NCBI RefSeq assembly: GCF_900232995.1
Contig: NZ_OCVX01000005.1
Span: 144,413 to 176,412, forward strand
Reading direction: 5' to 3'
DNA length: 32,000 nt
DNA from: Mycobacterium simulans
GTDB taxonomy: Bacteria > Actinomycetota > Actinomycetes > Mycobacteriales > Mycobacteriaceae
The first letter of the stretch is position 1. The number at the start of each line of letters is the position of its first letter. Position numbers and translations under genes: made by a program. The notes under the pieces are model-generated. The model saw only the letters and a program-made list of their open reading frames with translations. It had not been told where the DNA came from and did not search any database. Positions 9,016 to 27,006 of the stretch are shown here, piece after piece.

Positions 9016-9034
9016 TTGTGGGCCGCCCTTTGGT

Positions 9035-9943
<909 letters not shown>

Positions 9944-10037
9944 CTAGGTTACCTGGCGCTTTATCGCCGCCGCGAGCGTGCGTGTTTGTTCAGCGACACG
10001 CCGCGCGGGCAGTACATTTTCGCACCGTCGCGGCGGG

Positions 10038-10790
10038 TCAGGCTTCGGTCGCCAGCGGACTAGTCGCGACCTCGGTGCCGTCGGCCAAGGTCGAAACCTC
10101 GAAGTCGGCGAACACCGCGGGCGCGACGTCGACGAGCTGGCGCAAGCACTCGATGGCTAGCCGCCGGATTTCGACGTCGGCGTGTTCGCTGGCGCGCACG
10201 GCGATGAAGTGCCGCCACGCCCGGTAGTTGCCGGTCACGACGATGCGAGTTTCGGTGGCATTGGGCAGCACGGCGCGAGCGGCCTGGCGTGCCTGCTTGC
10301 GGCGCAGCACTGCGTTTGGCTGATCAGCGAACTTGGCTTCCAGCTTGGCCAGCAGGTCGGTGTAGGTGGCTCGGCTGGCGTCGGCGGCTGCGGTCAGGAT
10401 CTGGCGCAGTTCGGGGTCGTCCTCCATGCCGGGCGGCATCACGACCTGCGAGTCTTTCTCGGGCACGTAGCGCTGCGAGAGTTGCGAATAGGAGAAGTGC
10501 CGGTGCCGGATTAGCTCATGAGTACACGATCGCGAGATGCCGGTGATGTAGAACGACACACCGGCGTGCTCAAGCACCGAGAAGTGTCCGACGTCGATGA
10601 TGTGCTTGATGTAGCCGGCGTTGGTGGCGGTCTTCGGATTGGGCTTGGACCAGCTCTGGTAGCAAGCCCGGCCGGCGAATTCGACGAGCGCGGAACCCCC
10701 TTCCGCGTCGGTTGTCCAGGGCACATCCGAGGGTGCCAAGAACTCGGTCTTGGCGATGAGTTGCACGCGCAGCGGCGCGGTCTTTGCCAC
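10038..10790 (-). CDS. thyX: Flavin-dependent thymidylate synthase ThyX
   Basis: 250 aa with the ThyX signature [14 protein letters not shown] (RHR...S motif). Syntenic with Rv2754c. Confidence 0.95.
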
Positions 10791-10830
10791 GGCTGATCAC
10801 CTTAACGCGGCGACGGTACGCGGCGTGCCA

Positions 10831-11229
10831 TCAGACGAGTTCGGTCCGGCAGGTCAGTTGTGGCGCGCGGCTCAGGCGGGTGTCCGCGGTGAGCAGAGGA
10901 ATGTCGAGGTTGGTGGCCAGAGCCACGTAGAGCGCGTCGTAAAAACTCAAGTTGTGCCGCAAGCTCCACGCGCATCGGGCTAGTACCCCGACGTGTGGAT
11001 AGCGATCGTCGATCAGCGGGGCGGCGACGCGTAGCGCCGTATCGGCCTCCCTGGCGCTGATGTGCCCCGCCTGCTCGTGGCGGCGCAGCACGTTGCCGAC
11101 CTCGGCGTCGATCAAATGCGGTGCGTGCCGCCGCATCTCGGGCAGTCGCGCCCGCAGCGCATCGGCGGCGTCGGTCTTGGCGATCAAGGCCAGTACGAGC
11201 GCGGACGCGTCGATAACGTAGTCGTTCAC
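10831..11229 (-). CDS. vapC: PIN-domain ribonuclease toxin VapC
   Basis: 132 aa with PIN acidic residues in the expected contexts (VIDASALV, LIDAEV, FYDALYV, LLTADTRL). 4-nt overlap with the upstream antitoxin gene. Confidence 0.85.
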   Translation of the reverse strand: MNDYVIDASALVLALIAKTDAADALRARLPEMRRHAPHLIDAEVGNVLRRHEQAGHISAREADTALRVAAPLIDDRYPHVGVLARCAWSLRHNLSFYDALYVALATNLDIPLLTADTRLSRAPQLTCRTELV

Positions 11230-11462
11230 CGCCGGTCCGCGGCCAGATCGGCAAGGATAGATTCCCGCGTCGCCCCCGGCGTTTCGCTTTCCCTACGTAC
11301 GACCTCCATGGCTGCCAACGCCTCGGCCGCGGTGGGACGGCTCGCGAAGTCGATCACCCAGTCGCGCATGTAGGACTGGATGGAGCGTCCCGCCGCTCGA
11401 GCGCGCTTGCGAATCACCTCGTACGCGTCTTCGGGGATCTCCCGGATCTGGATTGTCGCCAT
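11226..11462 (-). CDS. vapB: Ribbon-helix-helix antitoxin VapB (FitA/Arc-like)
   Basis: 78 aa. MATIQIREIPEDAYEVIRKRARAAGRSIQSYMRDWV is an RHH N-terminus. Overlaps the vapC start by 4 nt. Confidence 0.8.
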   Translation of the reverse strand: MATIQIREIPEDAYEVIRKRARAAGRSIQSYMRDWVIDFASRPTAAEALAAMEVVRRESETPGATRESILADLAADRR

Positions 11463-11527
11463 AGCGCCACTTTAGCGCTATAACGCTAATACGGCCGTAT
11501 GGTTTCCTTGATACGGTTAGCCGTATG
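11461..11527. promoter_or_regulatory. Divergent vapB/vapB promoter region carrying three operator-like dyads
   Basis: ATAGCGC-N7-GCGCTAT (11461-11481, overlaps the minus-strand vapB ATG). Perfect 12-bp palindrome ATACGGCCGTAT (11489-11500). ATACGG-N4-CCGTAT (11511-11526, overlaps the plus-strand vapB ATG at 11525). Confidence 0.5.
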
Positions 11528-11767
11528 AAGACGACGATCAACCTTCCCGATGAGTTGGTACGAGAAGCGCAGGAATTGGCTCGCCGGGAGCGGACCACTC
11601 TGCGGGAGTTGATCGAAACAGGCCTGCGGGCCGTGATCAAACAGCGCTCGGGCGGTTCGTCGTTCGCCCTCCAAGACGCCAGCGTCGCCGGTCACGGTCT
11701 CCAGCCGGCCTTCCGTAACGCATCGTGGGGACAAGTGCGGGACGCCATCTATGAGCAACCCGAATGA
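11525..11767 (+). CDS. vapB: VapB-family antitoxin (RHH type)
   Basis: 80 aa. MKTTINLPDELVREAQELARRERTTLRELIETGLRAV. ATGA overlap with the following PIN gene. Confidence 0.8.
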   Translation: MKTTINLPDELVREAQELARRERTTLRELIETGLRAVIKQRSGGSSFALQDASVAGHGLQPAFRNASWGQVRDAIYEQPE

Positions 11768-12201
11768 TCGCCGTCGACACGAACATCCTGGTGTATGCGC
11801 ACCGGCGCGACGCGGAATTCCACGACGAGGCCGCCGAGCGCATCAAGGAATTGGCCGAAGGTAGATCTGCGTGGGCGATTCCATGGCCCTGCCTGCACGA
11901 GTTTTTCGCGATCAGCACGCACCCCAGGATCTATGACCCGCCGAGCACACGGAACCAGGCCGTCGCGCAGATGGGCGCCTGGCTGGCCTCACCCAGCCTG
12001 ACGATGCTCGGCGAGCCCGCCGGTTACTGGGATCAGCTCAAACACGTGCTTGCCAGTGGACGAGTAACCGGTTCGATGGTGCACGATGCGAGGGTCGCCG
12101 CGCTGTGCGTTGCGCATGGGGTTCGCGAGCTGTGGTCGGCCGATCGCGACTTCGGGCGATTCAGTTCGGTTCTGGCCGTGCGGAATCCATTGACCGGCTA
12201 A
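11764..12201 (+). CDS. vapC: PIN-domain ribonuclease toxin VapC
   Basis: 145 aa. MIAVDTNILVYAHRRD..., VHDARVAALC, LWSADRDF supply the PIN acidic residues. Confidence 0.85.
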   Translation: MIAVDTNILVYAHRRDAEFHDEAAERIKELAEGRSAWAIPWPCLHEFFAISTHPRIYDPPSTRNQAVAQMGAWLASPSLTMLGEPAGYWDQLKHVLASGRVTGSMVHDARVAALCVAHGVRELWSADRDFGRFSSVLAVRNPLTG

Positions 12202-12399
12202 CCTAATTAACGTTGCGGCACCGCTTTTGCGCTCGATGGGCGCGGACGAACGCGAACACAGCTACGTCCCCATCGAATTGGATTGCCAACCGCGCTGCGA
12301 GAACCGCCGGTCGACGGCATTTGTTGATGAGAGAGATGCCCGATCTGGAGTATTGCGTCACGGTATGGCTGCGCTGGGCTTTCACAGCTCGAAGGACAT

Positions 12400-13287
12400 T
12401 CACCAATTCAGGCCTTCGCCCGGCGGTCCGATCACTACCTTGCGCGGATCTTGTTGGATAATACCAACTTCAAATGCGTTGTCGCTGTAGATCTCTGCAT
12501 CGCTCTCCTTACCCTCCCCGTCGAATGCGATTTCATTGATCCGCAACGCAGTGGTCCACTTCCATTGCGCCATCCGCTCAACAACATCGCGCACCGAGAC
12601 TTGGCATTCCGCACAGTCATCGCAGGCGCTGTCATCGTCGACCTCGGCGTGCGCCTCACATCGCTCGAATTCGGTCGTGTAAACGTAGCCAGGGTCCCAG
12701 AGGCGCCCGGATGGAGGCCAGTCGAGTTCGATCCACTGCCCTGGTTCCAAGCCGAAGATGTCGATCGCCTTTTCCATCGCCGCCTTCTTGTCGGCGTTCG
12801 TCCAAGGCACATTCGGTGCCAACGCGACGTCCTCGATCGGATGAGAACCGGCGTACTCGACGGGATCGCGGACGGGTGCGACGGCTACATGGGCAGCATC
12901 GGCGCGGTCATACCAGTGGATTGTGCTCATCTCTCCGGTGTCGATGCGCGCGGGGTCGTGCGGCTCGGTGAACTCCGATTCGCGATAGGCCCAGCCGTTA
13001 CGCAGCTCATGCACGAGCCTGCGGGGTAAGCGGCCAACGATCTCGCGTTCGATCACGATATCTTCGGCGCGGGCATGCGCATCCATTGCGGCATTTACTG
13101 CTTCGGCGCCGTGGATACCGTTGGGGGCCAGGTCGTCTGCCTCGTCCCAGATGTCGCCGGCGGTCCGCTCCCGCTCCATCCGCAGCCAACTGACATGCCG
13201 GTAACGGGCCTCGGCATCGGCAAACTGGGGATCGCGTAGGTACTTCTCCTGTACGGTCTCGAATGCGCGAAATAGCCGATCAATCAT
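12400..13287 (-). CDS. Hypothetical acidic protein with C-terminal Cys cluster, translationally coupled to hsdR (function unknown)
   Basis: 295-aa ORF. Its ATG (13287) lies inside the last hsdR codons (GATGATTGA, 8-nt overlap). GC3-rich codons. Visibly D/E-rich. CEAHAEVDDDSACDDCAEC gives a C-x11-C-x2-C-x2-C pattern. I recognise no family. Confidence 0.7.
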   Translation of the reverse strand: MIDRLFRAFETVQEKYLRDPQFADAEARYRHVSWLRMERERTAGDIWDEADDLAPNGIHGAEAVNAAMDAHARAEDIVIEREIVGRLPRRLVHELRNGWAYRESEFTEPHDPARIDTGEMSTIHWYDRADAAHVAVAPVRDPVEYAGSHPIEDVALAPNVPWTNADKKAAMEKAIDIFGLEPGQWIELDWPPSGRLWDPGYVYTTEFERCEAHAEVDDDSACDDCAECQVSVRDVVERMAQWKWTTALRINEIAFDGEGKESDAEIYSDNAFEVGIIQQDPRKVVIGPPGEGLNW

Positions 13288-16200
13288 CGTCTTCCCCCTT
13301 CCCGATGCGGCGTGCTCGCTCGGCGTACTGCGGTGCCAATGCCTCCATCTGCTCGATAACCAACTTGATCGCTTCAGGCTGTTTGTCCGGAGGGTATCTG
13401 TACTTCACCAGTAGGCGCTTGATCGAAGACCGAAGCTTCGCACGTACGTCGTCGCGCACCGTCCAGTCGGTCTTGGTGTCGCGCTGCATCACACCGACCA
13501 GTTCGCGTGCGATCTGGGCGAGCACGTCCTCACCCTGAAGCTCGACGGCAGACTCATTTTGTGCCACAGCGTCGTAGAACGCCAGCTCGTCACGCGACAG
13601 GGCCGGAGTGAAGCGCTTACCCCGATTACCTTCAGCCGCGACATCTTTAGCCATTGCGATAAGCTCAGCGATCACCTCGGCGGAGGTGAGCTGCTGATTC
13701 GTATAGCGGCGCATCAGGTCGGTGATCCGGTCGGAGAATGCTCGCTGCCGCACCACGTTGTTCTTCGTGGCCCCTCCGAGTTCCTGGGTCAGCACCGCGC
13801 GCAGCGCCTCGATCGCCAGATGCGGGTGCGCGGCAGCCTTGGCCTTGGCTTCAAAGTCGGGGCCAAGGTCGGACAGCGACGGTTTCGGCAAGCCCGCTGC
13901 CTGGTAGATGTCGAGGATTTCGCCCGACGCGGTCGATTCCGCGACGAGACTAGACAACAGCCGTTTGATCTCGTCCGGGATCGGTTTGCCCTCGGCCCGC
14001 CGCTGCTCGGCGTCGAACTTGCCCATCCACACCCGGACCTGTTCGTAGAACTTGATTGTCGGCCGCCGGGACTCCAGGGCTTCGTTTCCGTCACACAGCG
14101 ACCACGCGCGGGCCAGGTGATTGGCCAGCTTGCGGAACCGGTCCCCGACGGTTGGCTCCCCGTCGGGAACCTGGTTTCCTGGGTTGGATGGTGACCGCAA
14201 GTGCGCGGTGAGGCCGATTGCCGCCCTCATCCATCCATGTTGCGGCTCATTGGCTTTCGATCTCCAGTCATATCCCGCGCACAGCTCGTCGAGCTGGCCG
14301 ACAAGATCTGTCGTCAGCTTGACCGCCGTGTCGATGTCCTTGCCGACGGGCTTAGTGTTGCGGTCGGTCTCAGTGTATTCGGCGAGTGCCGCGGCCAGGT
14401 TCTCCGCCAACGGCGCGTACGCGACCAGCAGCCCAGACGGCTTGCCTCGGAACGTCCGGTTGACCCGCGCCAGTGTCTGCATCAGCAGCGCGCCCTTGAG
14501 GGGGCGGTCGAGGTAGAGCGTGTGCAGCGGCGGCGCGTCAAAGCCCGTGAGCATCATGTCCTTGACGATCACGATCTGCAGCTCGTCCTCAGCGTCACGC
14601 AGCCGCTTCTGTATCACCTTGTTCTCGCTTTCGCGGCGCACATGTTTGGCGATGTTCCCAGGGTCCTGTGGGGAACCGGAGTAGACGACCTTGATCACGC
14701 CTTTGTCGATGGTGTCGCCGTGCCAGTCTGGTCGCAGCTTGCGGATCTCCTCATACAGCTGCGCGCAGATCTGACGGGTGGCACCGACGATGAACGCCTT
14801 TCCCGGAGAGGAGATGAACTTGCGCATCCCCTCGGATCGCGCTGCCCAATGGTTGACTATGTCCTCGGCCAGCGCCGCCAGCCGCTCGGGTGCGCCGTAG
14901 ATGGCGTTGATGACTGCGACCGATTTTTCGATCTGGGCGCGCTCCACGTCGTCGAGCCCGAGGGTTGCCTCGTCGACCGCATGGTCGAGGTCTCCTTCGC
15001 TGAAGTCCTCGGACCAGCCGACTTTGGCCAGTCGAGGTTCGAAATACACTGGTACGGTGGCGTTGTCAGCGACGGCGCGGGTGAGATCGTAGACGTCGAT
15101 GTCGGGGCCGAACACGTCACGAGTGTTACGGTCGGAGAACGAGATTGGCGTGCCGGTAAACGCGATGAACACGGCGTTCGGCAGGGCGTCGCGGATGTGG
15201 CGGGCGTAGCCGTCAAGATCGTCGTAATGACTGCGGTGTGCCTCGTCGACGATCACAATGATGTTGCGCCGCTCGGTGAGCAACGGGTGGTCCGCTCCGG
15301 ATTCGCGCTCCTCCTTGGTAAGACGGAACTTCTGCAGGGTGGTGAAGTAGATGCCACCGGTAGTTCGGTTGGACAGTTCGTCACGCAGCTGCGAGCGCTT
15401 GGTCATCTTCTGCGGTGATTCGTCGAGCAGCCGTGAGCGGTTGAAGGTCTCAAACAGCTGGGAGTCGAGCTCCTTGCGGTCGGTGATGACGACGATGGTC
15501 GGGTTTTTCAGCTTGGGCTGTTTGGCGACCAGGTGCGCGTAAAGCTCCATCTCCATCGACTTGCCGGAGCCTTGCGTGTGCCACACGACGCCGGCCTTGC
15601 CGTTGCTCTCGGCGGCTTCCACCGTCTTCCATACGGCTTTGGTGACCGCAAAGTATTGATGAGGCTTGGCGATTCGCTTGACCAGCCCATCGCCGTCTTC
15701 GTCGAACGCCGTGAAGTTACGTAGCAGTTGCAGGAACCGCTCGGTGTTAAACAGCCCGTCGATGAGAGTCTCGAGAGCAATCGGAACGTTCTCGTCGGCA
15801 ACCGGCTCACCAATGTTCACCACACGGCCGTCGTCGTCGACGTTCCAAGGCGCGAAGTGCTCCAGCGGAGTGAACGGCGTCCCGTATCGAGCGGTAATAC
15901 CGTCGCTGATGACCGTCAGGACGGCGAAACGAAACGCCATCGGGAACTCTCGCAGATAGGTCTGCAATTGCGCGTGCGCGGCTGCGATGTCCGCGTGCGC
16001 TGAGCCGGCCTGCTTGAGTTCGAAGATGCCGACGGGCATGCCGTTGAGGTACAGCACGACGTCGAAGCGCCGCTGATGATCCGCGGTGCGAATTGTAACT
16101 TGTTGCACTGCAAGGAATTCGTTGTCCTCGGGCCGGTGGCTGGCCAGCCTGATGGTTGGGTTCTGCTCGATGCCGTCGGCGTCGATGTAGCTGATGCCGC

Positions 16201-16489
16201 GATATCCATCTACGAGGATCTTGTGTAGCCGGTAGTTCTCGGCGATCGCGTCCTGTGACAGCGGTTGGATGATCGCGGCGCGGGCCTGGTCGAGGTATTC
16301 GGCCGGCACATCGGGATTCAGTTCGCGCATCTTGGCAAGCATGCGTTCGGGCAAGACTGTGTCGTCCCACGACTGGCGGCCACCCTCAGCGCCCGGCGCA
16401 ATCTGTTTTCCCGTGAGTTTTTGCCATTCGCGTTCGCCGAGTGTGTCCAGCGCGAGTTGTTCCCAGTCAGCTTCGCGGAATCCGGTCAT
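13280..16489 (-). CDS. hsdR: Type I restriction enzyme R subunit HsdR (intact)
   Basis: 1069 aa. N-terminal nuclease motif FDVVLYLNGMPVGIFELK (D...ExK). SF2 motifs HTQGSGKS (I), VDEAHRS (II, DEAH), FTGTP (III), QTLARVNR (VI). HsdR-type C-terminal helical domain. Confidence 0.95.
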   Translation of the reverse strand: MTGFREADWEQLALDTLGEREWQKLTGKQIAPGAEGGRQSWDDTVLPERMLAKMRELNPDVPAEYLDQARAAIIQPLSQDAIAENYRLHKILVDGYRGISYIDADGIEQNPTIRLASHRPEDNEFLAVQQVTIRTADHQRRFDVVLYLNGMPVGIFELKQAGSAHADIAAAHAQLQTYLREFPMAFRFAVLTVISDGITARYGTPFTPLEHFAPWNVDDDGRVVNIGEPVADENVPIALETLIDGLFNTERFLQLLRNFTAFDEDGDGLVKRIAKPHQYFAVTKAVWKTVEAAESNGKAGVVWHTQGSGKSMEMELYAHLVAKQPKLKNPTIVVITDRKELDSQLFETFNRSRLLDESPQKMTKRSQLRDELSNRTTGGIYFTTLQKFRLTKEERESGADHPLLTERRNIIVIVDEAHRSHYDDLDGYARHIRDALPNAVFIAFTGTPISFSDRNTRDVFGPDIDVYDLTRAVADNATVPVYFEPRLAKVGWSEDFSEGDLDHAVDEATLGLDDVERAQIEKSVAVINAIYGAPERLAALAEDIVNHWAARSEGMRKFISSPGKAFIVGATRQICAQLYEEIRKLRPDWHGDTIDKGVIKVVYSGSPQDPGNIAKHVRRESENKVIQKRLRDAEDELQIVIVKDMMLTGFDAPPLHTLYLDRPLKGALLMQTLARVNRTFRGKPSGLLVAYAPLAENLAAALAEYTETDRNTKPVGKDIDTAVKLTTDLVGQLDELCAGYDWRSKANEPQHGWMRAAIGLTAHLRSPSNPGNQVPDGEPTVGDRFRKLANHLARAWSLCDGNEALESRRPTIKFYEQVRVWMGKFDAEQRRAEGKPIPDEIKRLLSSLVAESTASGEILDIYQAAGLPKPSLSDLGPDFEAKAKAAAHPHLAIEALRAVLTQELGGATKNNVVRQRAFSDRITDLMRRYTNQQLTSAEVIAELIAMAKDVAAEGNRGKRFTPALSRDELAFYDAVAQNESAVELQGEDVLAQIARELVGVMQRDTKTDWTVRDDVRAKLRSSIKRLLVKYRYPPDKQPEAIKLVIEQMEALAPQYAERARRIGKGEDDD

Positions 16490-17621
16490 TGGTCTTCCCC
16501 TTGGTGCATGAGGGTTTCGGGCTCGTCAGTCAGCTCGGCTTCGAGTTCTTCGACCGTCGGCAGGCTGGATTCGAGTTCGGCAGGCAGGCTCTCGGTGATG
16601 GCGGTCTTCCACTCGGCGACACCGATCGGCGCGGTATAGCCGCGAAGGGCGTACTCGGCCACCACATTGTTCTTCGTTTTGCACAACAGCAGCCCGATGG
16701 TTGGCTTGTCGTCGGCATGCCGAGCAGCAGGTCGTCCACCGCGGCCATGTAAGTACCGAGTTGTCCCAGATAGCTGGGATCGAAATCGCCGACCTTCAAT
16801 TCGATTACGACGAAGCAGCGCAGATTCAGGTGGTAGAAGAGGAGCTCGGTGTAGAAGTCGGCGTCTCCGATTTCGAGGTGAACCTGCTTTCCCACGAAGG
16901 CGAACCCTCGCCCGAGTTCGAGCAGGAATCGTTCGACGCGGTCGATCAGCGCGCGTTCGAGGTCGCGCTCGCGTCGGAAGTCGGCGGTGCCGACGAAGTC
17001 GAACAGGTAGGGATCGCGGGCGGATTGCTGGACCAGATGGGAGTCCGGCGGGGGGATGGTGCGGGTGAAGTTTGTGATCGCGCGGCCGGCCCGTTCGTGG
17101 AACCGTCCCTCGATGTGGTGGACGAGGACGTTATGGCTCCATCCCTGCTCGACGGCGGCCTGGGCATACCAAAGTCGTAGGTCGGCACTGTTTAGCTTCT
17201 CCAGCAGCGCGATGTGATGGCGCCAGGGCAATTGTGCAAGCGGCGCTTGCACTTTGTCCGCCCGCGCAGCGGCGAAGGCTCTCATGTACTCGAGGTTGCG
17301 CGGTGAGAACCCCGAGGTGCCCAGGAACCGTTCACGCGGGTCGGCGGCCAGCCGATCGATGACCCGGGCTCCCCAGCCTTCGGTGTGTTGACGGGCGAGG
17401 ATCTCCGCAGCCACGGCCCAGGTTGTGCTGACGAGTTCCTGGTTGGCCGCCGATACCGCGCGTTGGCGTCCGGTTCGGACGCACGCGGCAACAGCGTCGA
17501 GCAGTTCGGGGTACCAGTCCGGGATGGTGGCCCGGGTGGGCGGCACCGGGAATCGGGCGTCTGCGCCGGCCCACGTCGGCCGCTCGTCGCGCTCGGTCAT
17601 CGCGCTCTCCGCAGTGCTCAC
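16486..17621 (-). pseudogene. DUF1016/YhcG-family PD-(D/E)xK nuclease, interrupted by a 1-nt frameshift near 16719-16735
   Basis: The 363-aa frame carries LFYHLNLRCFVVIELKVGDFDPSYLGQLGTYMAAVDDLL and then turns into junk (GMPTTSQPSGCCCAKRR...). The family continuation RHADDKPTIGLLLCKTKNNVVAEYALRGYTAPIGVAEW...LPTVEELEAEL is in another frame (the 66-aa ORF 16486-16686) and ends in an ATGA overlap with the hsdR start. Confidence 0.8.
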
Positions 17622-18781
17622 AGCACCTCGCTCACCGCGGCCTCGGCGTCCTTGACCCGGACCCTACCGGACATCAAGAGCGGGAGGAGTTCATCGCGAG
17701 TGCGCGCGAGCACTCGCGACTCTTTCCGCCGCTCATGGCACACCTGCCCGAGACCGGCGACCAACCCAGTCAGGTCAGGGCTCAGTTCGCGTACGTCCCG
17801 CACTTGGATGCCAAGCAAGTCATGGGGCCTTATCCGTTGATGGCTGCCAGATGTACCAGCGACCTTCTGCCGCAACTCTTCTGAGATTTCGGGCTGAGAC
17901 AACGCAGCCCACAGCAATGATGCGTCCACGGCGACGGACGTGAGGACGACGAACTCCGTACTTGCTAGCGGCATCTCCATGGGGAGTTCGCAAACGTTCC
18001 AAATACGAGGTATTCGCGGATTCAACTTGGAGAACAATACACACGGTTCTGACAGAGCAAATTTATTGCTCTTGATGGTTTTGCCATGAACGATCTCAGG
18101 CACAGCGCCGGCATCGAACGCCGGAAGACTAAAATGCGCAACGGAATCCCCGAACTGCTCAGGATAACGCGACGTGGTCGATTGACTCGCCAGAATGGAC
18201 AGCGGTGCGAACGCGGTAACCGAGTTGACAGTCGCGAACATTAGTGCCACTGCTGCCTCGACAACACGTTCGTTCGCGACGATCTTGTCATCGATGACGC
18301 CCAACACTTCTGCGATCGCCCGTTGTTCCTCAAACGAGGGCGCAGGAATCCGCACTTTGCGCAGTTCCGGTTGACGGATTCCGAGCACAGTTGTCCCGGT
18401 AGCCCGTGATGCCAGGTCAGCCTGGACATGGTCTGTCTGGAAGGCGTAGTAGAGGTACCGACTGTCAAGCTTTCCTGCAAGACCGCGCATGCAGAAGACG
18501 CGCTGCCCAATGACGATTGGTTCGTCGGTCCGAACCAACGCAACACGACCCAGCGGCGCCTCACTCGTCAGGACTACGTCGTTCGGTTCGGTCGGCCTGG
18601 GCATCCACTCCTTCCAGGTGTCGATCGAGGCGGTATTAGCAGCGGTTAGATCGAGACGACCCGCCCGAACCGACATACCGGAGACGACCGGGACGCCCGC
18701 CGGGCTGAATGGCGGGTTCTTTCCACGATTGTCGATCAATAGCTCGAGCGATTCGCCGAGAATTAACGAATCGGTTTTCAT
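17618..18781 (-). CDS. hsdS: Type I R-M specificity subunit HsdS (two TRDs)
   Basis: 387 aa. Central conserved helix EEQRAIAEVLGVIDDKIVANERV and C-terminal ESRVLARTRDELLPLLMSGRVRV. ATGA overlaps with hsdM (18778-18781) and with the DUF1016 gene (17618-17621). Confidence 0.9.
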   Translation of the reverse strand: MKTDSLILGESLELLIDNRGKNPPFSPAGVPVVSGMSVRAGRLDLTAANTASIDTWKEWMPRPTEPNDVVLTSEAPLGRVALVRTDEPIVIGQRVFCMRGLAGKLDSRYLYYAFQTDHVQADLASRATGTTVLGIRQPELRKVRIPAPSFEEQRAIAEVLGVIDDKIVANERVVEAAVALMFATVNSVTAFAPLSILASQSTTSRYPEQFGDSVAHFSLPAFDAGAVPEIVHGKTIKSNKFALSEPCVLFSKLNPRIPRIWNVCELPMEMPLASTEFVVLTSVAVDASLLWAALSQPEISEELRQKVAGTSGSHQRIRPHDLLGIQVRDVRELSPDLTGLVAGLGQVCHERRKESRVLARTRDELLPLLMSGRVRVKDAEAAVSEVL

Positions 18782-20397
18782 GACAACCGCTCCAGTTGCT
18801 CTCGGACCACCTTCTCCAACCGTGCCGACTCGTCGAACGCTGTTAACAGCTCTTTCGTCAGCCGCGCAATCTTCTCGTCGACAGGCTCGCCGTCGTCCTC
18901 AGCCTCTGGTGCACCCACATACCGACCCGGCGTCAGCGCATAGTCAGCAGCTTTGATCTCCGCTAAAGTGCTCGAATTGCAGAAGCCCGGAATATCCTCG
19001 TAGGTAAGGCCTTTCGCCGCCGCAGACGCCGATCCCCGCCAAGCGTGATAGGTGTCGCCGATCCGGACGATTTCCTCGTTCGTCAGCGCGCGCTCCGCGC
19101 GGTCCACCATGTAGCCCAGCTCCCGTGCGTCGATGAACAGCACCTGGCCGGCCCGGTCGGTCGAACCCTGTTTACCGGGCGTCTTGTCTTTGGCGAAAAA
19201 CCATAGACACACCGGGATTCCGGTGCTACGGAATAGCTGCGTCGGCAGCGCGACCATGCATGACACCAAATCCGCTTCGACAATCTGCGCCCGAATGTCG
19301 CCCTCGCCGTTGGAGTTCGACGACATTGAACCGTTGGCCATCACCACGCCCGCCTTGCCGCCCGGACCCAGCTTGGACAGGATGTGTTGGATCCACGCGT
19401 AGTTCGCGTTGTTGGCGGGCGGGACGCCGAAGCGCCAGCGCGGGTCTTCCTCATTTCGCGACCAGTGCTTGATGTTGAACGGCGGATTGGCCATCACATA
19501 ATCCATCTGCACGTCCGCATGCTGGTCGCGAGCGAAGGTGTCACCCCACCGCGCGCCCAGGCCCTTGTTGTCGATCCCATGAATGGCGAGGTTCATCTTC
19601 GCCATCCGCCAGGTCTCCTCGATGCTCTCCTGGCCGTAGATCGAGATGTCCTTCGGGTCGCCGTCGTGTTCGTAGATGAACTTCTCGGTCTGCACGAACA
19701 TGCCGCCGGAGCCACAGCACGGGTCGTACACCCGTCCCCGCGACGGCTCGAGCATCTCCACGATCACCTTGACCACGCTGGGCGGCGTGAAGAACTCTCC
19801 ACCGCGCTTACCTTCCGCGCGAGCGAAATTCCCGAGAAAGTATTCGTACACCTCTCCCATCAGGTCACGGGCGCGATGCTCACCTTGGCGGCTAAATCGT
19901 GCACTGTTGAAGAGGTCGATCAGTTCACCGAGCCGGCGCTGATCGATGTTGTCCTTGTTGTACAAGCGTGGCAGCGTTCCGCCCAGCGTGGGGTTGGCCT
20001 TCATCACCGCGTCCATTGCCTCGTCGATCAACTGCCCGACGTTCTTCGCAAGCTCGTCGCCAACCGCCGGTTTGCCTTTCGCGTTCTCCGCCAGGAACTT
20101 CCAGCGCGCGTTCGGGGGTACCACGAACACCCCGTAGCCCTGGTACTCTTCAGGCTCGTCGATCAGGTCCTCGATCTGAGACTCGTCCATCCCATCGGCG
20201 GCCAGTTCGGTTCGAATAGCTTCTCGCCGTTCGTCATACGCGTCCGACACGTATTTGAGGAACACCAGCCCCAAGATCACGTCCTTGTATTGGCTGGCCG
20301 AGAGAGACCCGCGCAGCTTGTCGGCGGCCTTCCAGAGCGTGTCCTTGAGCTGTTTCATGGTCGACGGCGCTTGCGGCTCCTTGTTCCTGGGAGGCAT
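18778..20397 (-). CDS. hsdM: Type I R-M N6-adenine DNA methyltransferase HsdM
   Basis: 539 aa. HsdM N-domain LWKAADKLRGSLSASQYKDVILGLVFLKYVSD, SAM motif VYDPCCGSGGMF, catalytic NPPF (VMANPPFNIKHW). RBS GGAAGGAA upstream of the ATG at 20397. Confidence 0.95.
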   Translation of the reverse strand: MPPRNKEPQAPSTMKQLKDTLWKAADKLRGSLSASQYKDVILGLVFLKYVSDAYDERREAIRTELAADGMDESQIEDLIDEPEEYQGYGVFVVPPNARWKFLAENAKGKPAVGDELAKNVGQLIDEAMDAVMKANPTLGGTLPRLYNKDNIDQRRLGELIDLFNSARFSRQGEHRARDLMGEVYEYFLGNFARAEGKRGGEFFTPPSVVKVIVEMLEPSRGRVYDPCCGSGGMFVQTEKFIYEHDGDPKDISIYGQESIEETWRMAKMNLAIHGIDNKGLGARWGDTFARDQHADVQMDYVMANPPFNIKHWSRNEEDPRWRFGVPPANNANYAWIQHILSKLGPGGKAGVVMANGSMSSNSNGEGDIRAQIVEADLVSCMVALPTQLFRSTGIPVCLWFFAKDKTPGKQGSTDRAGQVLFIDARELGYMVDRAERALTNEEIVRIGDTYHAWRGSASAAAKGLTYEDIPGFCNSSTLAEIKAADYALTPGRYVGAPEAEDDGEPVDEKIARLTKELLTAFDESARLEKVVREQLERLS

Positions 20398-20411
20398 TCG
20401 ACAGTTCCTTC

Positions 20412-22283
20412 CTATCTCTGGGCCGCGGCAACGCCGGGTGTGGTGGGTTGGGCATCAAGGGTGAGGGCGCCGGCGGCGACCCCCTCGATCAGGGCGGTCT
20501 TGAGATTTCGCGCGGCGTCGGCCCGCCGGCGCGCTTCGCGTTCGAACTCGTCAACCCGCTTAAGCGCCTCTTCGAGCCGTGCCGCCTCGTCACGGCGCAT
20601 CGCCGGAATGCTCCACGTTTTCCATTCGCTTCCCGCTGAGGCCATTTCGTTGATCACCGTGGCGAGCACCACCGGTCCGATCTCGGCCGATTCGCGCAAG
20701 CGGATGATTCGTGCGGGCGACGCGACCATGGCGCCGCCAACCGGGTCAACCCACGCCCGCGGGCGCGGCTTCTCGATGAAGATCACGTCGCCGGGGTCGG
20801 TGCGGGCCGCGCGCGGATACTTGCGCGCCGCGTCGAACGCGTCGAGGGCGATCGCTCCGGCAATTTCGGCGGGTAACACCGGAACCGTCCCGTCGGGCGA
20901 GGCGTCAGCGAAATTGATTCTGCTGCCACGCTTGACGGCGACGTGCTTGCGTTCGTGAAGCTCGCCGAGGGACTGGTGCAACAGCCGGAATCGCCCTGGC
21001 GAAGGTTCCACCAACACGTCCAGCGGCTCCAACGGTGATGTCGTCGTCAGCGTTGCGGCGTGCACGCGATCCAGGTGTGCGGTCGGGTCCGCTTCGCGCA
21101 GTCTTGGCGCGCGCACCCCGCGCGGTACTACCGAACCCGCGGCCAGCACGTTGCCCAGCTCGACGCGGCGAGCGTACCGGAAGGCGCGATCGTCAGTCTG
21201 CGCCAATGCCCCTGCGATGTCAGCCGCAATATCGCTGCGCTCAAGATTCTCGACGGCGCCCAGGTCGGCAACCCAGGGCCGCTGAGCATTGGCACCTCCC
21301 AGGCATATCCACGCCGCGAGGCTCTGCCGGTGCGCCTCTCGCCACAATCCACGCGGAAGTCGGAGTGCGGCAACCAAATTGCCAACCCGCAATGTCCGTG
21401 CGCGACGTTGCTGCAGAGTTCCCGCAAGCTCATCGGTCAGCGCGGCGGCGGGACCGAATAACCCCGTCACGTCGCCTTCGCTCAACGCGACGACTCCTTC
21501 GTCAGCACGGTCGAGCGCGTCTGCAATCTCCAAGCCGATAACGGATGACACCGAGATGCTAGACCGCGCGGTTGCCTCGTTGACGGCGATCCCGCGGATC
21601 ATCGCCCTGCGCCGAAGGGCGCGGTTGTTCGACACGATCTCAAGGTCGCATGCCGCGGCTATATCAAGCGAAACCGGTGAGTCGTCCGCCCGCATAATGA
21701 CCGGCTCGTGGTCGAGGTGCGTGGCCGCCGCCCCAACGATCCAGCCGAGCGACTCCACGGCGGCCGGTGTGAGCTCACGCGCACCTAGCACCCGCTTCAG
21801 ACGTCCTTGCTCCAAGCGCGCCAACGCGTCGGGCGGGCCGAACGACGCCTCCACCAGATCGTCGATGTAGCTGAGCACCGCGTCCGATGCCCGTAACCCG
21901 CGGATCTCACGCAGCAGCGAAACATCATCGGGGTCGAAACGCTCCGCCCGTCGCACCCGGTGAGCCAACGACGTGCCCCCGAGTTCTTCTCCGGTGACGA
22001 CATGCCAGCACAGCAGCGTCACCACGTCTTCCAGCTCCGCGCCGTGGGGCGCAGCAACCGCGGGTGCGTCATAGCTGTGTTCGGAGTTGTTGCCGCGGCT
22101 CGTGCGCGTCAGCCAGTCGACGACCTCATCGCGTGCGAACCTCGCGACACCGTCGATGACCTCCACTGGTTCCGGGAACGGAATCGACACGCCGCGAACG
22201 ATTGGCCTCTTTCGCCACATGCTGACCACAGGCCGGCGTACCTTTGCAAGGTCGGCGACGTCCTGCAACGTCAGCGTGTTCAC
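20412..22283 (-). CDS. Hypothetical 623-aa protein: N-terminal Xis/MerR-like HTH, degenerate (motif-less) gamma-MTase-like core, single TRD-like domain and C-terminal helix. First gene of the R-M operon
   Basis: GTG at 22283 preceded by GAGAGGAG. The stop is 14 nt before the hsdM ATG. HTH: MNTLTLQDVADLAKVRRPVVSMWRKR...ARFARDEVVDWL. MTase-like strings lack the SAM and NPPF motifs (see findings). TRD-like: GDVIFIEKPRPRAWVDPVGGAMVASPARIIRLR. The CDS call is solid; the domain reading is by eye. Confidence 0.75.
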   Translation of the reverse strand: MNTLTLQDVADLAKVRRPVVSMWRKRPIVRGVSIPFPEPVEVIDGVARFARDEVVDWLTRTSRGNNSEHSYDAPAVAAPHGAELEDVVTLLCWHVVTGEELGGTSLAHRVRRAERFDPDDVSLLREIRGLRASDAVLSYIDDLVEASFGPPDALARLEQGRLKRVLGARELTPAAVESLGWIVGAAATHLDHEPVIMRADDSPVSLDIAAACDLEIVSNNRALRRRAMIRGIAVNEATARSSISVSSVIGLEIADALDRADEGVVALSEGDVTGLFGPAAALTDELAGTLQQRRARTLRVGNLVAALRLPRGLWREAHRQSLAAWICLGGANAQRPWVADLGAVENLERSDIAADIAGALAQTDDRAFRYARRVELGNVLAAGSVVPRGVRAPRLREADPTAHLDRVHAATLTTTSPLEPLDVLVEPSPGRFRLLHQSLGELHERKHVAVKRGSRINFADASPDGTVPVLPAEIAGAIALDAFDAARKYPRAARTDPGDVIFIEKPRPRAWVDPVGGAMVASPARIIRLRESAEIGPVVLATVINEMASAGSEWKTWSIPAMRRDEAARLEEALKRVDEFEREARRRADAARNLKTALIEGVAAGALTLDAQPTTPGVAAAQR

Positions 22284-22350
22284 GGGCGCGGCGCTCCTCT
22301 CGGCATCGGATCGAATGTAGACCCTTCTCGGTCATCATTCAATGACATCT

Positions 22351-22370
22351 CTGATAAGCCGGCTTATCAG
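22351..22370. promoter_or_regulatory. Perfect 20-bp palindrome CTGATAAGCCGGCTTATCAG in the divergent promoter region (operator candidate)
   Basis: The sequence equals its own reverse complement. It lies in the 176-bp AT-enriched spacer between the 623-aa gene (start 22283, minus strand) and the 476-aa gene (start 22460, plus strand). Confidence 0.55.
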
Positions 22371-22459
22371 TATTCCAGTTGCATTCGATCTACAGACCTG
22401 CGGATCCTGTCTGCGGCGCAATACCGCACTCGGCGGTGGCGAGAAATCGAGGAGTAGCC

Positions 22460-23890
22460 GTGAACCACCCGCAGCGACAGGCATATTTCGACGAGACGAC
22501 GACCGCGGTCGTGATCGAAGGACTTACCGTGCGGGACAAGGACGTTGCGCGTGAGGCGCAACGCTGGACAACCGGTGCGCGAGGCCCGATCGTCGAGGAT
22601 CCCGACACGCTCAAGGCTGCCGATCTTTCGGAGTTCGTCGCCGAAGCGGTCAAGATCGGCGCGCATGCGCTGTCTGTGACTGGCCAGGCCCAGGAATCAC
22701 GAATGGTGGAGCAGATGCTGAAGGACGTCGGCGAGAAGGCGGCGGATTCGACTGCCAAGGCAGCCGAGGTCACCGAACGTGCGGTTAAGTCGGCATCCGA
22801 AATCATGGCAAAAGCCGCCAACGAGGCCAGGAAGGCAATCACCGAGGCCGATGCCACCAGCCGAAAGGAATTCACCGAATCGGTCGCGGCGGCCAAGAAT
22901 GACCTCAACGCCGAGGTGCGCCGCATGTTCGGCGGCGAACGCCCGGAGCTGCTGGACCGCCTGCAGCCCGTGCTCGACAAGTTCGCCACCGACCTCGACG
23001 CCAAGGTGAAGGCCGGAACCAGCGATCTGTTGACCAAGGCAGCCAAGCAATTCGACCCCACTGACCCCACCTCACCGATGGCGAAACATGCTGCGGATCT
23101 CGGGGCACGGCAAGAGAAGCTGACCGAGCTGATCGACAAAAACCACGCCGACGTAGTCAAGAAGGTCGACGAGCTGCTGACCACCCTGAAGGTTCAGGAC
23201 GCCAAAGCCAGCCTCGCCAAAGTCACGCCGATCAAAGGCGACACCTTCGAGAACCAGATCAACACCGTGCTCTCGGCGATTGCCGTCGGCCTCGGCGACG
23301 AGTACACCGATACCCGCGCGATCGTCGGATCGGTGGCCCGGTCGAAGAAGGGCGACGGCGTCTTGCATGTGGACGGCGACGCCGCCCGCGTGGTGATCGA
23401 GATGACTGACTCGGCGCGCGCCGGCTGGGCCGAGTACTTCGACGAAGCCGAGCGCAACCGCCTTGCCGTGGCTGCGCTCGGCGTCGTACGGACGAGCGAG
23501 CAGAACGGCGGCCAGTCCATCCGCACGCTCGGCGCTCGACGCATCGTGCTCGCGTTCGACCCCGGGTCAGATGATCCCGAGCTGGTGCGCACCGTCGTCA
23601 TGCTTCTGCGGACGGTCGCGCTCGCGGCGGCGACACGAAAAGGTGCGCACCAGATCGCTACGGCGGAGGAGAAAATCACCGAGGCCATCGCGCAGCTCAC
23701 TCGCTTGGACGAGGTGAAGAAGACCGCCGGGTCGATTCAGAAGAGCGCCATGAAGGTCGAAAATTCCTGCACCGGAATCAATTCCGGAATCCAGCGGTTG
23801 CTCAACGACGCACTGGCCGCCTTGACCGACGCGAACCCTGACACGGAGCCCGGTTCGACTGAAGGTCCAGTGCCCAACGCAGTCGCATAG
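22460..23890 (+). CDS. Hypothetical 476-aa protein: long Ala/Lys/Glu-rich helical (coiled-coil/apolipoprotein-like) N-terminal half, RmuC/DUF2130-like restriction-endonuclease-fold C-terminal half
   Basis: GTG at 22460 preceded by GAGGAG (22449-22454). Strong GC3 bias in this frame. C-terminal pattern KGDTFENQINTVL...KKGDGVLHVDGDAARVVIEMTDSARAGWAEYFDEAERNRLAVAALGVV. The upstream part of the 503-aa ORF has no RBS or coding look. Confidence 0.75.
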   Translation: MNHPQRQAYFDETTTAVVIEGLTVRDKDVAREAQRWTTGARGPIVEDPDTLKAADLSEFVAEAVKIGAHALSVTGQAQESRMVEQMLKDVGEKAADSTAKAAEVTERAVKSASEIMAKAANEARKAITEADATSRKEFTESVAAAKNDLNAEVRRMFGGERPELLDRLQPVLDKFATDLDAKVKAGTSDLLTKAAKQFDPTDPTSPMAKHAADLGARQEKLTELIDKNHADVVKKVDELLTTLKVQDAKASLAKVTPIKGDTFENQINTVLSAIAVGLGDEYTDTRAIVGSVARSKKGDGVLHVDGDAARVVIEMTDSARAGWAEYFDEAERNRLAVAALGVVRTSEQNGGQSIRTLGARRIVLAFDPGSDDPELVRTVVMLLRTVALAAATRKGAHQIATAEEKITEAIAQLTRLDEVKKTAGSIQKSAMKVENSCTGINSGIQRLLNDALAALTDANPDTEPGSTEGPVPNAVA

Positions 23891-24158
23891 GCGCTGACGA
23901 GCGATCCACGTGCGCGCAGCTCGAATATCGGCCTGGCTGAAAACAACGCGGACCGGTCGGCGTCGAAGACTTCGATCTGGATTCCGTAATCGTCCAGCAA
24001 ACGATCCACCAGCCGGCCGACGATAGCCGACGTGGCGACGATCACCGCGGCAAAACGTTGTCTTGTAGACGTAGACTTCGTTCTGCAGAATCGCGTGCTT
24101 GTCGTCGTCGGCGAGAAGCCTGTGGAGTTCTCGCAGAGTCACTTCCGCCGCAGCGCGC

Positions 24159-25310
24159 CTAGCCTCGGCGCACGATCAGCGCGACTGTGCGTTCGCTCTT
24201 GATATTGAGGCTCATGGTAGAGGGGTCTCGTTTTTCGGGTAGATCATCTGCCGCGTGGACATGCCCGTACATCAACAGCGGAAGAAGTGCATCGCGACGC
24301 GCCGACAACTGTGCGGATTCGGTTCGTCGCCCATGACACAACGCACCTAGGCTCGCGATTGCGCGCGCCGGCCCGGTAGCCAACCGCCGCACATCTCGCA
24401 CTCGGGTCTGCAGGAGTTCGTGGGGTTGGATTCGTTGGCGGCTTCCTGTCACGCCAGCAACCCGCTGATGGATAGTTGCCAAGACATCGGGTTGTCGTAG
24501 CGCTGACCACAAAGCGGAAGTATCAACGCCAAGTGGCCTCAGTACTACGAATTCCGTACTGGCCAAGGCCATTTCCGACGGCAGGCACGTAATATTCCAG
24601 ACTCGTGGGATTCTCGGATTCAACTTCGGGAATAGTACACACGGCTCCGACAAAAGGAACTTGGCGCTCTTGATTGTTCGACCGTCAACATGGCTTGGCT
24701 GGGTGCCGTCATCGAACGCCGGAAAGCTGTAGTGAGCGACTCTGCCGTCGAATTTCGGCGGAGAAAGATATGCGGTTGACCTCCTCGCCAAGCTCGACAA
24801 GGTCGCATAGTCACTGACTTGCTCGACTATCGCAACCATCAGCTTCTCGGCGGCCGCGATAACGCGGTCGTTAGTCGCTATCTTGTCGTCTAAAGCACCG
24901 AGAATTGCGCCAATTCGACGGCGGTCAGGTGCGGCGGCAGCCAGGACCACAACATTTCGAAGGATGCTCTGACTCAGCAGAGGCTGTCCCGACCCGGCGC
25001 GATATCGATTAAGTCCGCAGCTCTGCAGCGCGTAATACCAATATCGTGTTTCCTCGGGGTATTTGGCCCGGCAAACCAGCGCATTGTCGGTGACCCACGC
25101 ATCCGAATCGCAATAGCGCACGCTACCGCAATACGAACCAACCCGACCCACGACTATCAACGGGCCCTGCGCATTGCGTTCGGCCGCATACCCGATTGCC
25201 CCGTTGGCGCCATAGATGGGATAGCGACCGTGGGGCCCTCGCACTCGCGGAGTGCTTCCACAGGAAAAGTCGACGTGGTCACCCAAACGCACTTTCACCG
25301 CGCTGGCCAT
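24159..25310 (-). CDS. hsdS: Second, orphan type I specificity subunit HsdS (two TRDs, divergent C-terminus)
   Basis: 383 aa. Central helix DRRRIGAILGALDDKIATNDRV. TRD2 is paralogous to TRD2 of the hsdS at 17618-18781 (roughly 60% identical by eye); TRD1 is unrelated. The start ATG overlaps the ycaQ-like stop by 1 nt (TGATG). The C-terminus LLPLLMYGHVHAADD... departs from the usual LLPLLMSGRVRV. Confidence 0.85.
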   Translation of the reverse strand: MASAVKVRLGDHVDFSCGSTPRVRGPHGRYPIYGANGAIGYAAERNAQGPLIVVGRVGSYCGSVRYCDSDAWVTDNALVCRAKYPEETRYWYYALQSCGLNRYRAGSGQPLLSQSILRNVVVLAAAAPDRRRIGAILGALDDKIATNDRVIAAAEKLMVAIVEQVSDYATLSSLARRSTAYLSPPKFDGRVAHYSFPAFDDGTQPSHVDGRTIKSAKFLLSEPCVLFPKLNPRIPRVWNITCLPSEMALASTEFVVLRPLGVDTSALWSALRQPDVLATIHQRVAGVTGSRQRIQPHELLQTRVRDVRRLATGPARAIASLGALCHGRRTESAQLSARRDALLPLLMYGHVHAADDLPEKRDPSTMSLNIKSERTVALIVRRG

Positions 25311-26524: not shown

Positions 26525-27006
26525 CGCCGCCGATAGCTGTGAAACCGGTACCGCAGCCCGGAGCGGGCGACGAGCCACTCCCCCGTCTCGCGCCGCCAGG
26601 TCTCGTCGAGCACGGGCGCGAGGGCGTCGTCGTCAACCTGCGGAAGGTCGATGTCGATCTCCGTGACTTCACATCGGGTGGCTTGCGGCAGTGCCAGCCG
26701 ATAGATCTGCGCCCCGCCAACGACCCACGTCTCGGGCTCGGTCAGGGCATCTTCGAGTGAACCGACTACCTCTGCTCCGTCAGCCATGAAGTCAGTCTGA
26801 CGGGTCAGTACGACATTTCGGCGGCCGGGCAGCGGCCGAAACCTCGCCGGCAAAGATTCCCAGGTCAGTCGGCCCATCACCACCGTGTGGCCCATAGTGA
26901 CCTGTCTGAAGTGCGCCAAATCCTCGGGCAGCTGCCACGGGATACCGCCCGCGCGGCCAATGACACCGGACGTCGACTGAGCCCAGATCAGGCCCAAGGT
27001 CGTCAT
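26521..27006 (-). CDS. dfrA: Dihydrofolate reductase
   Basis: 161 aa. [48 protein letters not shown] is the DHFR signature. 4-nt overlap with the thyA stop. Confidence 0.95.

Follow-up and report, generated by a model that had tools for sequence, protein, structure and literature searches.

The window analyzed here, a 32,000-nucleotide stretch of the Mycobacterium simulans genome, carries a type I restriction-modification (R-M) operon that belongs to a lineage spread across Actinomycetota. Six consecutive open reading frames (ORFs) are found on the minus strand, i.e., g1, hsdM, hsdS, DUF1016, hsdR and g6. The noteworthy feature of this region is a control module composed of g1, a palindromic operator and the divergent gene div477, which is conserved together with this type I lineage across the phylum. 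We consider it probable (about 0.68) that g1, a methylase-like protein with a predicted winged helix-turn-helix (HTH), is the dedicated regulator of the operon and acts through the operator, and that DUF1016 and g6 are optional cargo in two slots. The conserved unit is div477, the operator and g1-hsdM-hsdS-(slot)-hsdR-(slot) rather than a set of three added genes. An earlier, sequence-only reading had described a complete type I system carrying three extra cistrons; it missed the operator and the regulatory role proposed here for g1, as well as div477, which is located just outside the span that it covered.

The evidence is mainly comparative. One genome per species was scanned, which yielded 78 loci encoding a g1 relative (numbered with the prefix L below) from Mycobacteriales, Pseudonocardiales, Micromonosporales, Propionibacteriales, Frankiales and Micrococcales. 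Comparison of these loci shows that the putative operator is conserved, that it tracks g1 and that it co-varies with a predicted specificity residue of the HTH.

The g1 protein, its putative operator and their co-variation

The g1 gene (20412-22283, minus strand) encodes 623 amino acids from a GTG start codon at 22283. Its product is identical to MSIMFI_03907, just as the products of g6 and div477 correspond to MSIMFI_03902 and MSIMFI_03908, respectively (100% identity in each case). An AlphaFold2 (AF2) model of the protein, with a predicted local distance difference test (pLDDT) score of 89, displays a winged HTH at residues 3-62 (nt 22098-22277), an HsdM-like helical and Rossmann-like body that lacks the catalytic motifs at residues ~70-400, a beta-rich domain resembling a target-recognition domain (TRD) at residues ~430-560 (nt 20604-20996), and a long helix of 40 residues at positions 564-603 (nt 20475-20594). 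The top match of this model in Foldseek is 7eew_A, a fused methylase-specificity (M-S) "intact" methylase from Vibrio vulnificus (E 1e-15), and further matches include the type IIG enzyme BpuSI (E 4e-12) and several HsdMs such as those of EcoR124I and EcoKI. The Foldseek probability of the methyltransferase fold is 1.00 to 7eew_A, 3s1s, 3lkd, 2okc, 7bst and 2y7c.

The motifs that define activity have been lost. The NPPY motif, searched for as [NDS]PP[FYWH], is missing in 243 of 244 full-length g1 relatives, the sole match being at a non-homologous position, and at the place where motif IV is due, after the fourth strand, the family conserves GPA(A/S). The glycine loop, i.e., the S-adenosylmethionine (SAM)-binding motif I, is lost in most relatives. 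A distant Micrococcales branch of the family retains DPxxGSGDLL at the motif I position, which argues for descent from an active enzyme. From these data g1 is predicted to be a catalytically dead pseudo-enzyme, and the earlier description of the first gene as an HTH/dead-methyltransferase protein is borne out. A profile-profile comparison (hhalign) of g1 with the neighboring HsdM finds no similarity (probability 0.3%), which suggests an ancient origin of this pseudo-enzyme rather than a recent duplication.

Known families offer little guidance. No Pfam match is obtained down to E 10, also when HTH families are included, and no NCBIfam or PADLOC match is found. Residues 3-79 give weak PHROG matches (E 0.002-0.005) to a DNA-binding protein and an excisionase. 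A profile search against sequences in the PDB returned a chance PIN match (E 0.68), and nothing when the N-terminus was used alone. The g1 family itself is large: 1012 representatives at 50% identity were found at E <= 0.001, all labeled hypothetical, and those with a recorded source organism are all from Actinomycetota. The gene located directly downstream of g1 is hsdM in 73 of 75 informative loci, across six orders, and both hsdM and hsdR are found in 57 of the 62 g1 loci that have enough downstream sequence. In other words, g1 is a constant fourth component of this type I lineage.

The putative operator (22351-22370) is a perfect 20-bp palindrome, CTGATAAGCCGGCTTATCAG, which may be written as CTGATAAG-N4-CTTATCAG. 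It precedes the start codon of g1 by 67 nt, inside the 173-bp intergenic region between g1 and div477, and occurs once in the window, where 0.01 occurrences are expected by chance. Among the 78 loci, 77 retain a dyad of this type, placed between -80 and -125 relative to the start of g1; the sole locus without it is L001. Its information content is near 2 bits at G2, T13 and C17. The variant with the central triplet ATA occurs 56 times in 1.67 Mb of locus sequence, i.e., about once per locus. Two operator-like dyads, at 1874-1893 and 2325-2344 and ~450 nt apart, are found upstream of g1 in Nocardia vaccinii (L031).

The palindrome appears to be embedded in a symmetric control region. On the g1 side, a putative promoter of g1 and the hsd genes (22314-22342, minus strand), read from the sequence, is composed of TTGAAT (22342-22337), a 17-nt spacer and TACATT (22319-22314), and GAGAGGAG serves as a Shine-Dalgarno sequence in front of the GTG at 22283. 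On the div477 side, a putative -35 element, TTGCAT (22379-22384, plus strand), starts 8 nt from the edge of the palindrome and mirrors the g1 side, such that TTG-type -35 hexamers begin 8 nt from either dyad edge. Across loci, the position of the TTG and TAnnnT elements relative to the palindrome is conserved, as is TTGnCA at the mirror position; the -10 positions are conserved as well, most clearly in mycobacteria. If both of these inferred divergent promoters are right, the dyad is centered near -53 for each of them.

A rearranged locus in Nocardia camponoti (L055) is informative in this context. Here, ~7 kb of ORF-poor DNA with a lower GC content lie between g1 and hsdM, and hsdM is preceded by its own copy of the dyad together with a TACTGT -10 element 121 nt upstream. 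This arrangement fits a dyad that controls hsd transcription with g1 acting in trans. In total, three operator copies are present in this locus (9898-9917, 16042-16061 and 18618-18637).

Of all observations, it is their co-variation that most strongly supports a reading of the dyad by the g1 HTH. Four central triplets are seen among the operators, each paired with a particular recognition helix of g1: ATA with V(R/Q)RPVVSMWR, TTA with (S/T)R(P/Q)AVS (A19), AGA with RHVV (H18), and TTT with RQAVTNW (A19). Residue 19 alone, among 623 alignment columns, separates the two operator classes perfectly, being Ala in 13 of 13 loci of one class and Val in 59 of 59 of the other. Furthermore, on a neighbor-joining tree constructed from g1 residues 71 to the end, i.e., with the HTH left out, the loci whose operator has T at position 4 (A19) are located in at least five separate places. 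The pairing of V19 with A and of A19 with T is directly testable by a swap.

The gene on the other side of the control region, div477 (22457-23890, plus strand), encodes 477 amino acids. The N-terminal half of the protein looks like a coiled coil, and the C-terminal half is conserved and contains a KG...GDG...E-M-T motif. According to tblastn searches, about two thirds of the loci, in several orders, carry div477 in this divergent position next to g1. No Pfam, NCBIfam or PADLOC family was matched above threshold and no HTH was detected; the family searches, PHROGs included, returned coiled-coil noise, and a profile search against PDB sequences returned coiled-coil proteins only. The KG...GDG...E-M-T motif and a single match to RmuC (E 0.12) give at most a hint of a nuclease-like domain, perhaps similar to RmuC or DUF2130, in the C-terminal half. 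Many of the 544 homologues are named "Fis family transcriptional regulator" at NCBI, a name that is backed by neither a curated family nor an HTH. The dyad persists in ~23 loci in which no div477 homologue was found, which indicates that the operator follows g1, not div477.

The operon and its two proposed cargo slots

The core of the operon is confirmed by Pfam and PADLOC to encode a complete type I R-M system, as judged from its sequence. The hsdM gene (18778-20397, minus strand) encodes a 539-residue N6-adenine methyltransferase subunit (Pfam N6_Mtase, E 1e-117, and HsdM_N) in which motifs I and IV are intact, DPCCGSGG and NPPF being invariant in the alignment. The specificity subunit of 387 residues is encoded by hsdS (17618-18781, minus strand; Pfam Methylase_S, PADLOC Specificity_I, E 3e-84). 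The restriction and translocase subunit of 1069 residues is encoded by hsdR (13280-16489, minus strand), where both the nuclease N-terminus and the SF2 motor are matched (Pfam HSDR_N, SWI2_SNF2, T1R_D3-like and T1RH-like_C; NCBIfam TIGR00348).

The sequence-only reading had described every junction as tight. The packing is indeed tight and three of the five junctions are as described, but the two that flank DUF1016 are not. The g1 stop codon (TAG, 20414-20412) is separated from the hsdM ATG at 20397 by a 14-nt gap that holds the ribosome-binding site AGGAAGGAA, hsdM and hsdS share an ATGA overlap at 18781-18778, and hsdR and g6 share the 8-nt overlap ATGATTGA at 13287-13280, which is the same in L083 and L010. 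The overlap of hsdS with DUF1016 at 17621-17618, reported as ATGA, reads GTGA; because the homologues of DUF1016 align from the ATG at 17600, which is preceded by a GGAGAG Shine-Dalgarno sequence, a 17-nt gap is more likely. The ATGA at 16489-16486, reported to join DUF1016 to hsdR, closes a different, ancestral frame of DUF1016; the current ORF ends with TGA at 16532-16530, 40 nt before the hsdR ATG at 16489. A scan of the minus strand within the unit for sigma-70 promoters and terminators found neither terminator-like nor informative sites, and hsdM, hsdS and hsdR, packed together with the three additional genes, seem to form a single transcription unit. Chance is an unlikely source of this arrangement, as Mycolicibacterium sp. 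(L083/L084) and M. peregrinum (L010) have the six genes in the identical order.

The DUF1016/YhcG gene of the PD-(D/E)xK nuclease type spans 16486-17621 (minus strand) in its ancestral extent; its likely start is the ATG at 17600 and the current ORF covers 16530-17621. Both Pfam DUF1016_N and YhcG_C are matched (111 and 131 bits vs cut-offs of ~33), as is PADLOC PDC-S02 (E 6e-104). The earlier identification of a PD-(D/E)xK nuclease between hsdS and hsdR is thereby upheld as to the family, but the gene in the window is frameshifted. The match to YhcG_C covers no more than positions 1-102 of 157, such that the frame of the nuclease domain is not intact. In a DNA alignment, a 2-bp CT insertion is found at 16723-16724, where the sequence reads CTGCTGCT vs CTGCTG in L083, L010 and L019, and a tblastn search with the L083 homologue changes frame at ~16725. 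The displaced tail of 64 C-terminal codons is 94% identical to the L083 protein and its frame ends at 16486. This degree of identity suggests that the break arose very recently by mutation, or else reflects an error of assembly or sequencing, and because the displaced tail ends in exactly the reported ATGA overlap, it is evident that the earlier reading had followed the ancestral frame.

The position between hsdS and hsdR is variable. DUF1016 is found in about 12 of the 78 loci, all mycobacterial, and in most loci hsdS leads straight into hsdR with a gap of ~18 nt. Elsewhere the slot holds a Schlafen/AlbA_2 ATPase, a PF06189 5'-nucleotidase (PADLOC PDC-S08), a 5'-nucleotidase together with DUF1016, or nothing. 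The Schlafen-type protein (~590 residues) contains Schlafen/AlbA_2, HATPase_c_4 and a winged HTH, and also matches regions of PADLOC models associated with prokaryotic Argonaute (pAgo). Alternative cargo of the Schlafen or 5'-nucleotidase type is located at 14839-16599 in L016, 14747-16540 in L066, 14698-15750 in L012 and 7281-8321 in L014. This pattern is what would be expected if DUF1016 were swappable, optional cargo and not a subunit.

The second slot is found after hsdR, where the window carries g6 (12400-13287, minus strand), which encodes a 295-residue acidic protein with a partly conserved C-x2-H ... C-x2-C cluster. Its isoelectric point (pI) is 4.55, with 61 Asp and Glu vs 31 Lys and Arg residues, and the family median is 4.49; the earlier description of an acidic, cysteine-cluster protein behind hsdR is accurate in this respect. 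The 48 homologues are all from Mycobacteriales. No Pfam, NCBIfam, PADLOC or PHROG family is matched, and the AF2 model (pLDDT 89.7) has no Foldseek match at E <= 0.001 in the PDB or BFVD (best E 0.15 and 0.12, respectively, with a template modeling score of about 0.1). An assignment as a DNA mimic of the Ocr or ArdA type was considered and rejected together with other fold assignments: the acidic surface is present, but neither Foldseek nor PHROG revealed a likeness in fold or sequence.

Like DUF1016, g6 is distributed sporadically. Loci with g6 behind hsdR are those of M. peregrinum (L010; split in L012), Antrihabitans (L016) and Mycolicibacterium sp. (L083/L084); in Nocardia amikacinitolerans (L081) it follows hsdR with DUF1016 absent, and in Nocardia nova (L079/L080) it is found alone in a different R-M island, away from hsdR. 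This distribution would be consistent with g6 as optional cargo rather than a subunit. In the decaying locus of Candidatus Mycobacterium methanotrophicum (L001, 10001-19555), g6 is in two pieces and hsdR is split, with T1RH-like_C in a separate ORF. Other same-strand ORFs overlap or abut the hsdR stop codon at 19910-20995 in L017, 17863-19638 in L036, 17843-18862 in L065, 11284-11940 in L070 and 9983-10999 in L020. They match no Pfam family and are unrelated to g6, and a hidden Markov model built from the g6 alignment matched, among the post-hsdR ORFs of other loci, that of L010 only. These ORFs may be further cargo.

From the above it becomes apparent that the three additional genes, which had been presented as one complement, do not form a set: about 12 of 78 loci have DUF1016, a handful have the 295-residue gene behind hsdR, and only g1 is constant (73 of 75). 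The sequence-only reading had itself named absence or variability in related hsd loci as an outcome that would speak against it, and this outcome is observed for DUF1016 and g6, not for g1.

On one side of the operon (7339-12201) genes for RNase J, dapA, thyX and a PIN toxin are found, and on the other (24159-27803) a second hsdS, an AlkZ-like glycosylase gene, dfrA and probably thyA. L083 carries the operon at the same thyX/dapA/RNase J site as M. simulans. The setting resembles that of the hsd locus of M. tuberculosis, which is flanked by thyX and dfrA. The second hsdS (24159-25310, minus strand) is located 1.9 kb upstream of g1; over its C-terminal 273 residues it shares 51% identity with the hsdS of the operon, and its first TRD is different; orthologues occupy the same place in L005, L006, L009, L011, L048 and L050. 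Recombination between the two hsdS genes was considered and rejected, as they have no DNA repeats in common. The AlkZ-like ORF (25310-26578) would overlap the dfrA ORF (26521-27006, minus strand) by 58 nt if its first start codon were used, and its start is probably located further downstream.

Proposed mechanism and alternative explanations

According to the proposed mechanism, g1 would have descended from a protein in which a methylase was fused to half a specificity subunit. It would have lost NPPY and, in most relatives, the SAM-binding loop, would have kept the body, and would carry an excisionase/MerR-like winged HTH at its N-terminus. The module of TRD and long helix may mediate dimerization, as in half-HsdS proteins, of which the engineered EcoR124I-NT is an example (PMC2877798). 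The two HTHs of such a dimer would sit on the 20-bp dyad, midway between the back-to-back promoters and ~53 bp upstream of each putative start site, and g1 bound at this position would control its own operon as well as the divergent div477. DUF1016 and g6 would make use of the expression of the operon from two insertion slots. As to the sign of the regulation, analogy with RptR and the methylase-repressor fusions (see below) inclines us modestly toward homeostatic repression.

Several observations weigh against this proposal. A dyad centered near -53 is unusual for a simple repressor, which bears on the sign of the regulation, and the hexamers of the putative promoters match weakly, scoring too low to be called by the sigma-70 scan. 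The relationship of g1 to HsdM is seen at the level of the modeled fold, sequence similarity being absent, and the class of the HTH is drawn from the model, visual inspection and the weak PHROG matches, with no Pfam match. The AGA and TTT operator classes each form a single clade, where co-variation is confounded by descent, and they therefore add little. The neighbor-joining tree is approximate, and recombination of the HTH together with the operator could mimic independent changes; movement as one module would, on the other hand, still link the two functionally. Finally, a pseudo-methylase body of 560 residues is more than a plain regulator needs, and its size and conservation suggest that g1 may have a further role besides regulation, in sensing or assembly.

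This last point is taken furthest by an explanation in which g1 is mainly a working part of restriction, either as an alternative, non-methylating recognition module assembled with HsdR or HsdM, or as a decoy by which DNA-mimic anti-restriction proteins of phages, such as Ocr or ArdA, are sensed, operator binding being secondary or a sensing output. The conservation of the entire M-S-like body, with many invariant residues outside the HTH (e.g., RLPRGLWREAHRQ and RTEPGDV), the tight linkage to hsdM and the fact that the methylase of the best structural match, 7eew_A, was crystallized with Ocr are all in line with such a role. A contact of g1 with HsdM or HsdR has no support, the sole column that tracks a DNA feature is located in the HTH rather than in the TRD, and an unmethylated recognition module that recruits HsdR would poison its own cell, barring a special target; we regard this explanation as unlikely. 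A related scheme joins both functions: g1 could be a decoy sensor, a dead M2S-like dimer offering the groove that Ocr and ArdA mimics attack. Capture of a mimic, or binding of unmodified target DNA by the TRDs, would cause the HTHs to leave the dyad, and with this release the R-M genes would be turned on jointly with the slot cargo and div477. Decoy, release and switch-on taken jointly are a long shot; if true, they would constitute an anti-anti-restriction circuit built from a pseudo-enzyme.

The remaining explanations concern the palindrome and the cargo. The dyad might be bound by div477 or by a host regulator, with the g1 HTH having another target. Gene div477 borders on the same intergenic region, is retained in most loci and is named a transcriptional regulator in NCBI records, but it displays neither a detectable HTH nor a curated family, the palindrome outlasts it in the ~23 loci mentioned above, and it is residue 19 of g1 that tracks the operator perfectly, all of which makes such a binder improbable. 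Equally hard to sustain, if not slightly more so, is the idea that the six genes form one integrated system in which DUF1016 and g6 are partners of HsdMSR in the manner of PrrC in EcoprrI (PMC12707154). The recurrence of the six-gene order and of the 8-nt hsdR/g6 overlap in two other mycobacterial species (L083/L084 and L010) speaks in its favor; most related loci, however, lack both genes, the slot holds unrelated alternatives, g6 occurs without DUF1016 (L081) or away from hsdR (L079/L080), and DUF1016 is frameshifted in the window. That the palindrome functions as an RNA hairpin (an attenuator, a terminator or an element of the 5'-untranslated region) instead of a protein-binding DNA site is very improbable indeed. 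Both arms change together, such that base pairing would survive, but it is the sequence itself that is conserved across orders and not pairing alone; many copies are imperfect at the outer positions, the site is located upstream of the putative -35 elements of both promoters, a T-tract is absent, and Rfam yields no match across 11500-24500. Regulation by g1 through the operator, with cargo in two slots, is the best-supported reading.

Comparison with known regulators and cargo

Methylase-repressor fusions such as M.SsoII, M.Ecl18kI and M.EcoRII control type II R-M systems (reviewed in PMC12707154). Like g1, they are composed of an N-terminal HTH and a body with a methyltransferase fold; binding of the fusion to the promoter region of the R-M genes ties transcription to the protein level. 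The modeled architecture of g1 matches this type, and its co-variation with the operator would be in line with binding in the promoter region. In contrast to g1, the SsoII-type proteins are active C5-cytosine methylases of type II systems, while g1 has an N6-adenine (HsdM/type IIG) fold with a TRD and appears dead. Moreover, the fused methylase is the modification enzyme of its system, which g1 is not, since a separate, intact hsdM follows.

The fused M-S enzyme of V. vulnificus YJ016 (7eew) and BpuSI (PMC3185434) share with g1 the order of a methylase domain and then a single TRD in one chain. Unlike g1, which has an HTH and is predicted to be dead, they are active, retain the SAM-binding and NPPY motifs and have no N-terminal HTH.

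Among regulators, C proteins are alike in that they control the R-M operon, and thereby their own expression, from a palindromic operator in front of the gene that encodes them; a palindrome upstream of the gene of the putative regulator, at the head of the R-M genes, is found here in 77 of 78 loci. A C protein encoded upstream of hsdM/S/R is described for Mycoplasma gallisepticum (Fisunov 2017, as cited in PMC12707154). C proteins differ from g1 in being small, stand-alone Xre-type HTH proteins that contact their operator via HTH motifs as dimers or tetramers and act through two adjacent C-boxes; g1 is seven times larger, has one dyad, and carries an HTH that appears to belong to the excisionase/MerR class.

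A further parallel is RptR, a small repressor located beside type I R-M systems of Gammaproteobacteria with DarTG2 as embedded cargo; it was only in 2025 that this family, the first of dedicated regulators to be connected with such systems, was described (PMC12255303). In both cases a dedicated regulator, as proposed here for g1, is found at the head of a type I operon with cargo, and the regulator and its site are conserved with the type I systems. The two are set apart by size, architecture, host phylum and site: RptR is a small homodimer on TAGCTA repeats, whereas g1 has 623 residues and a single 20-bp dyad shared by divergent promoters. In the literature we found no description of an HTH/dead-methylase partner of type I systems. 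The module points to an independent, phylum-wide solution of Actinomycetota to type I R-M regulation, in which a regulator would be made from a dead methylase-specificity fusion and the operator is recognizable directly in the DNA sequence. Defining the g1 family (>1000 clusters at 50% identity) would also improve the annotation of mycobacterial and actinobacterial defense loci.

Cargo in type I loci is well known, e.g., PrrC in EcoprrI (PMC12707154), DarTG2 (PMC12255303), and DUF1016 and RhuM between core genes (PMC9881135); for DUF1016 this location is documented in PMC3424549 as well. The occurrence of DUF1016 between hsdS and hsdR, and of alternative defense-type genes in the same slot of related loci, is in line with these examples. 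What differs is that the contents of the slot alternate within one operon lineage, and that a second slot, after hsdR, holds the orphan g6. The two slots are thereby marked as places in which to seek new defense genes, such as g6 and the unannotated post-hsdR ORFs.

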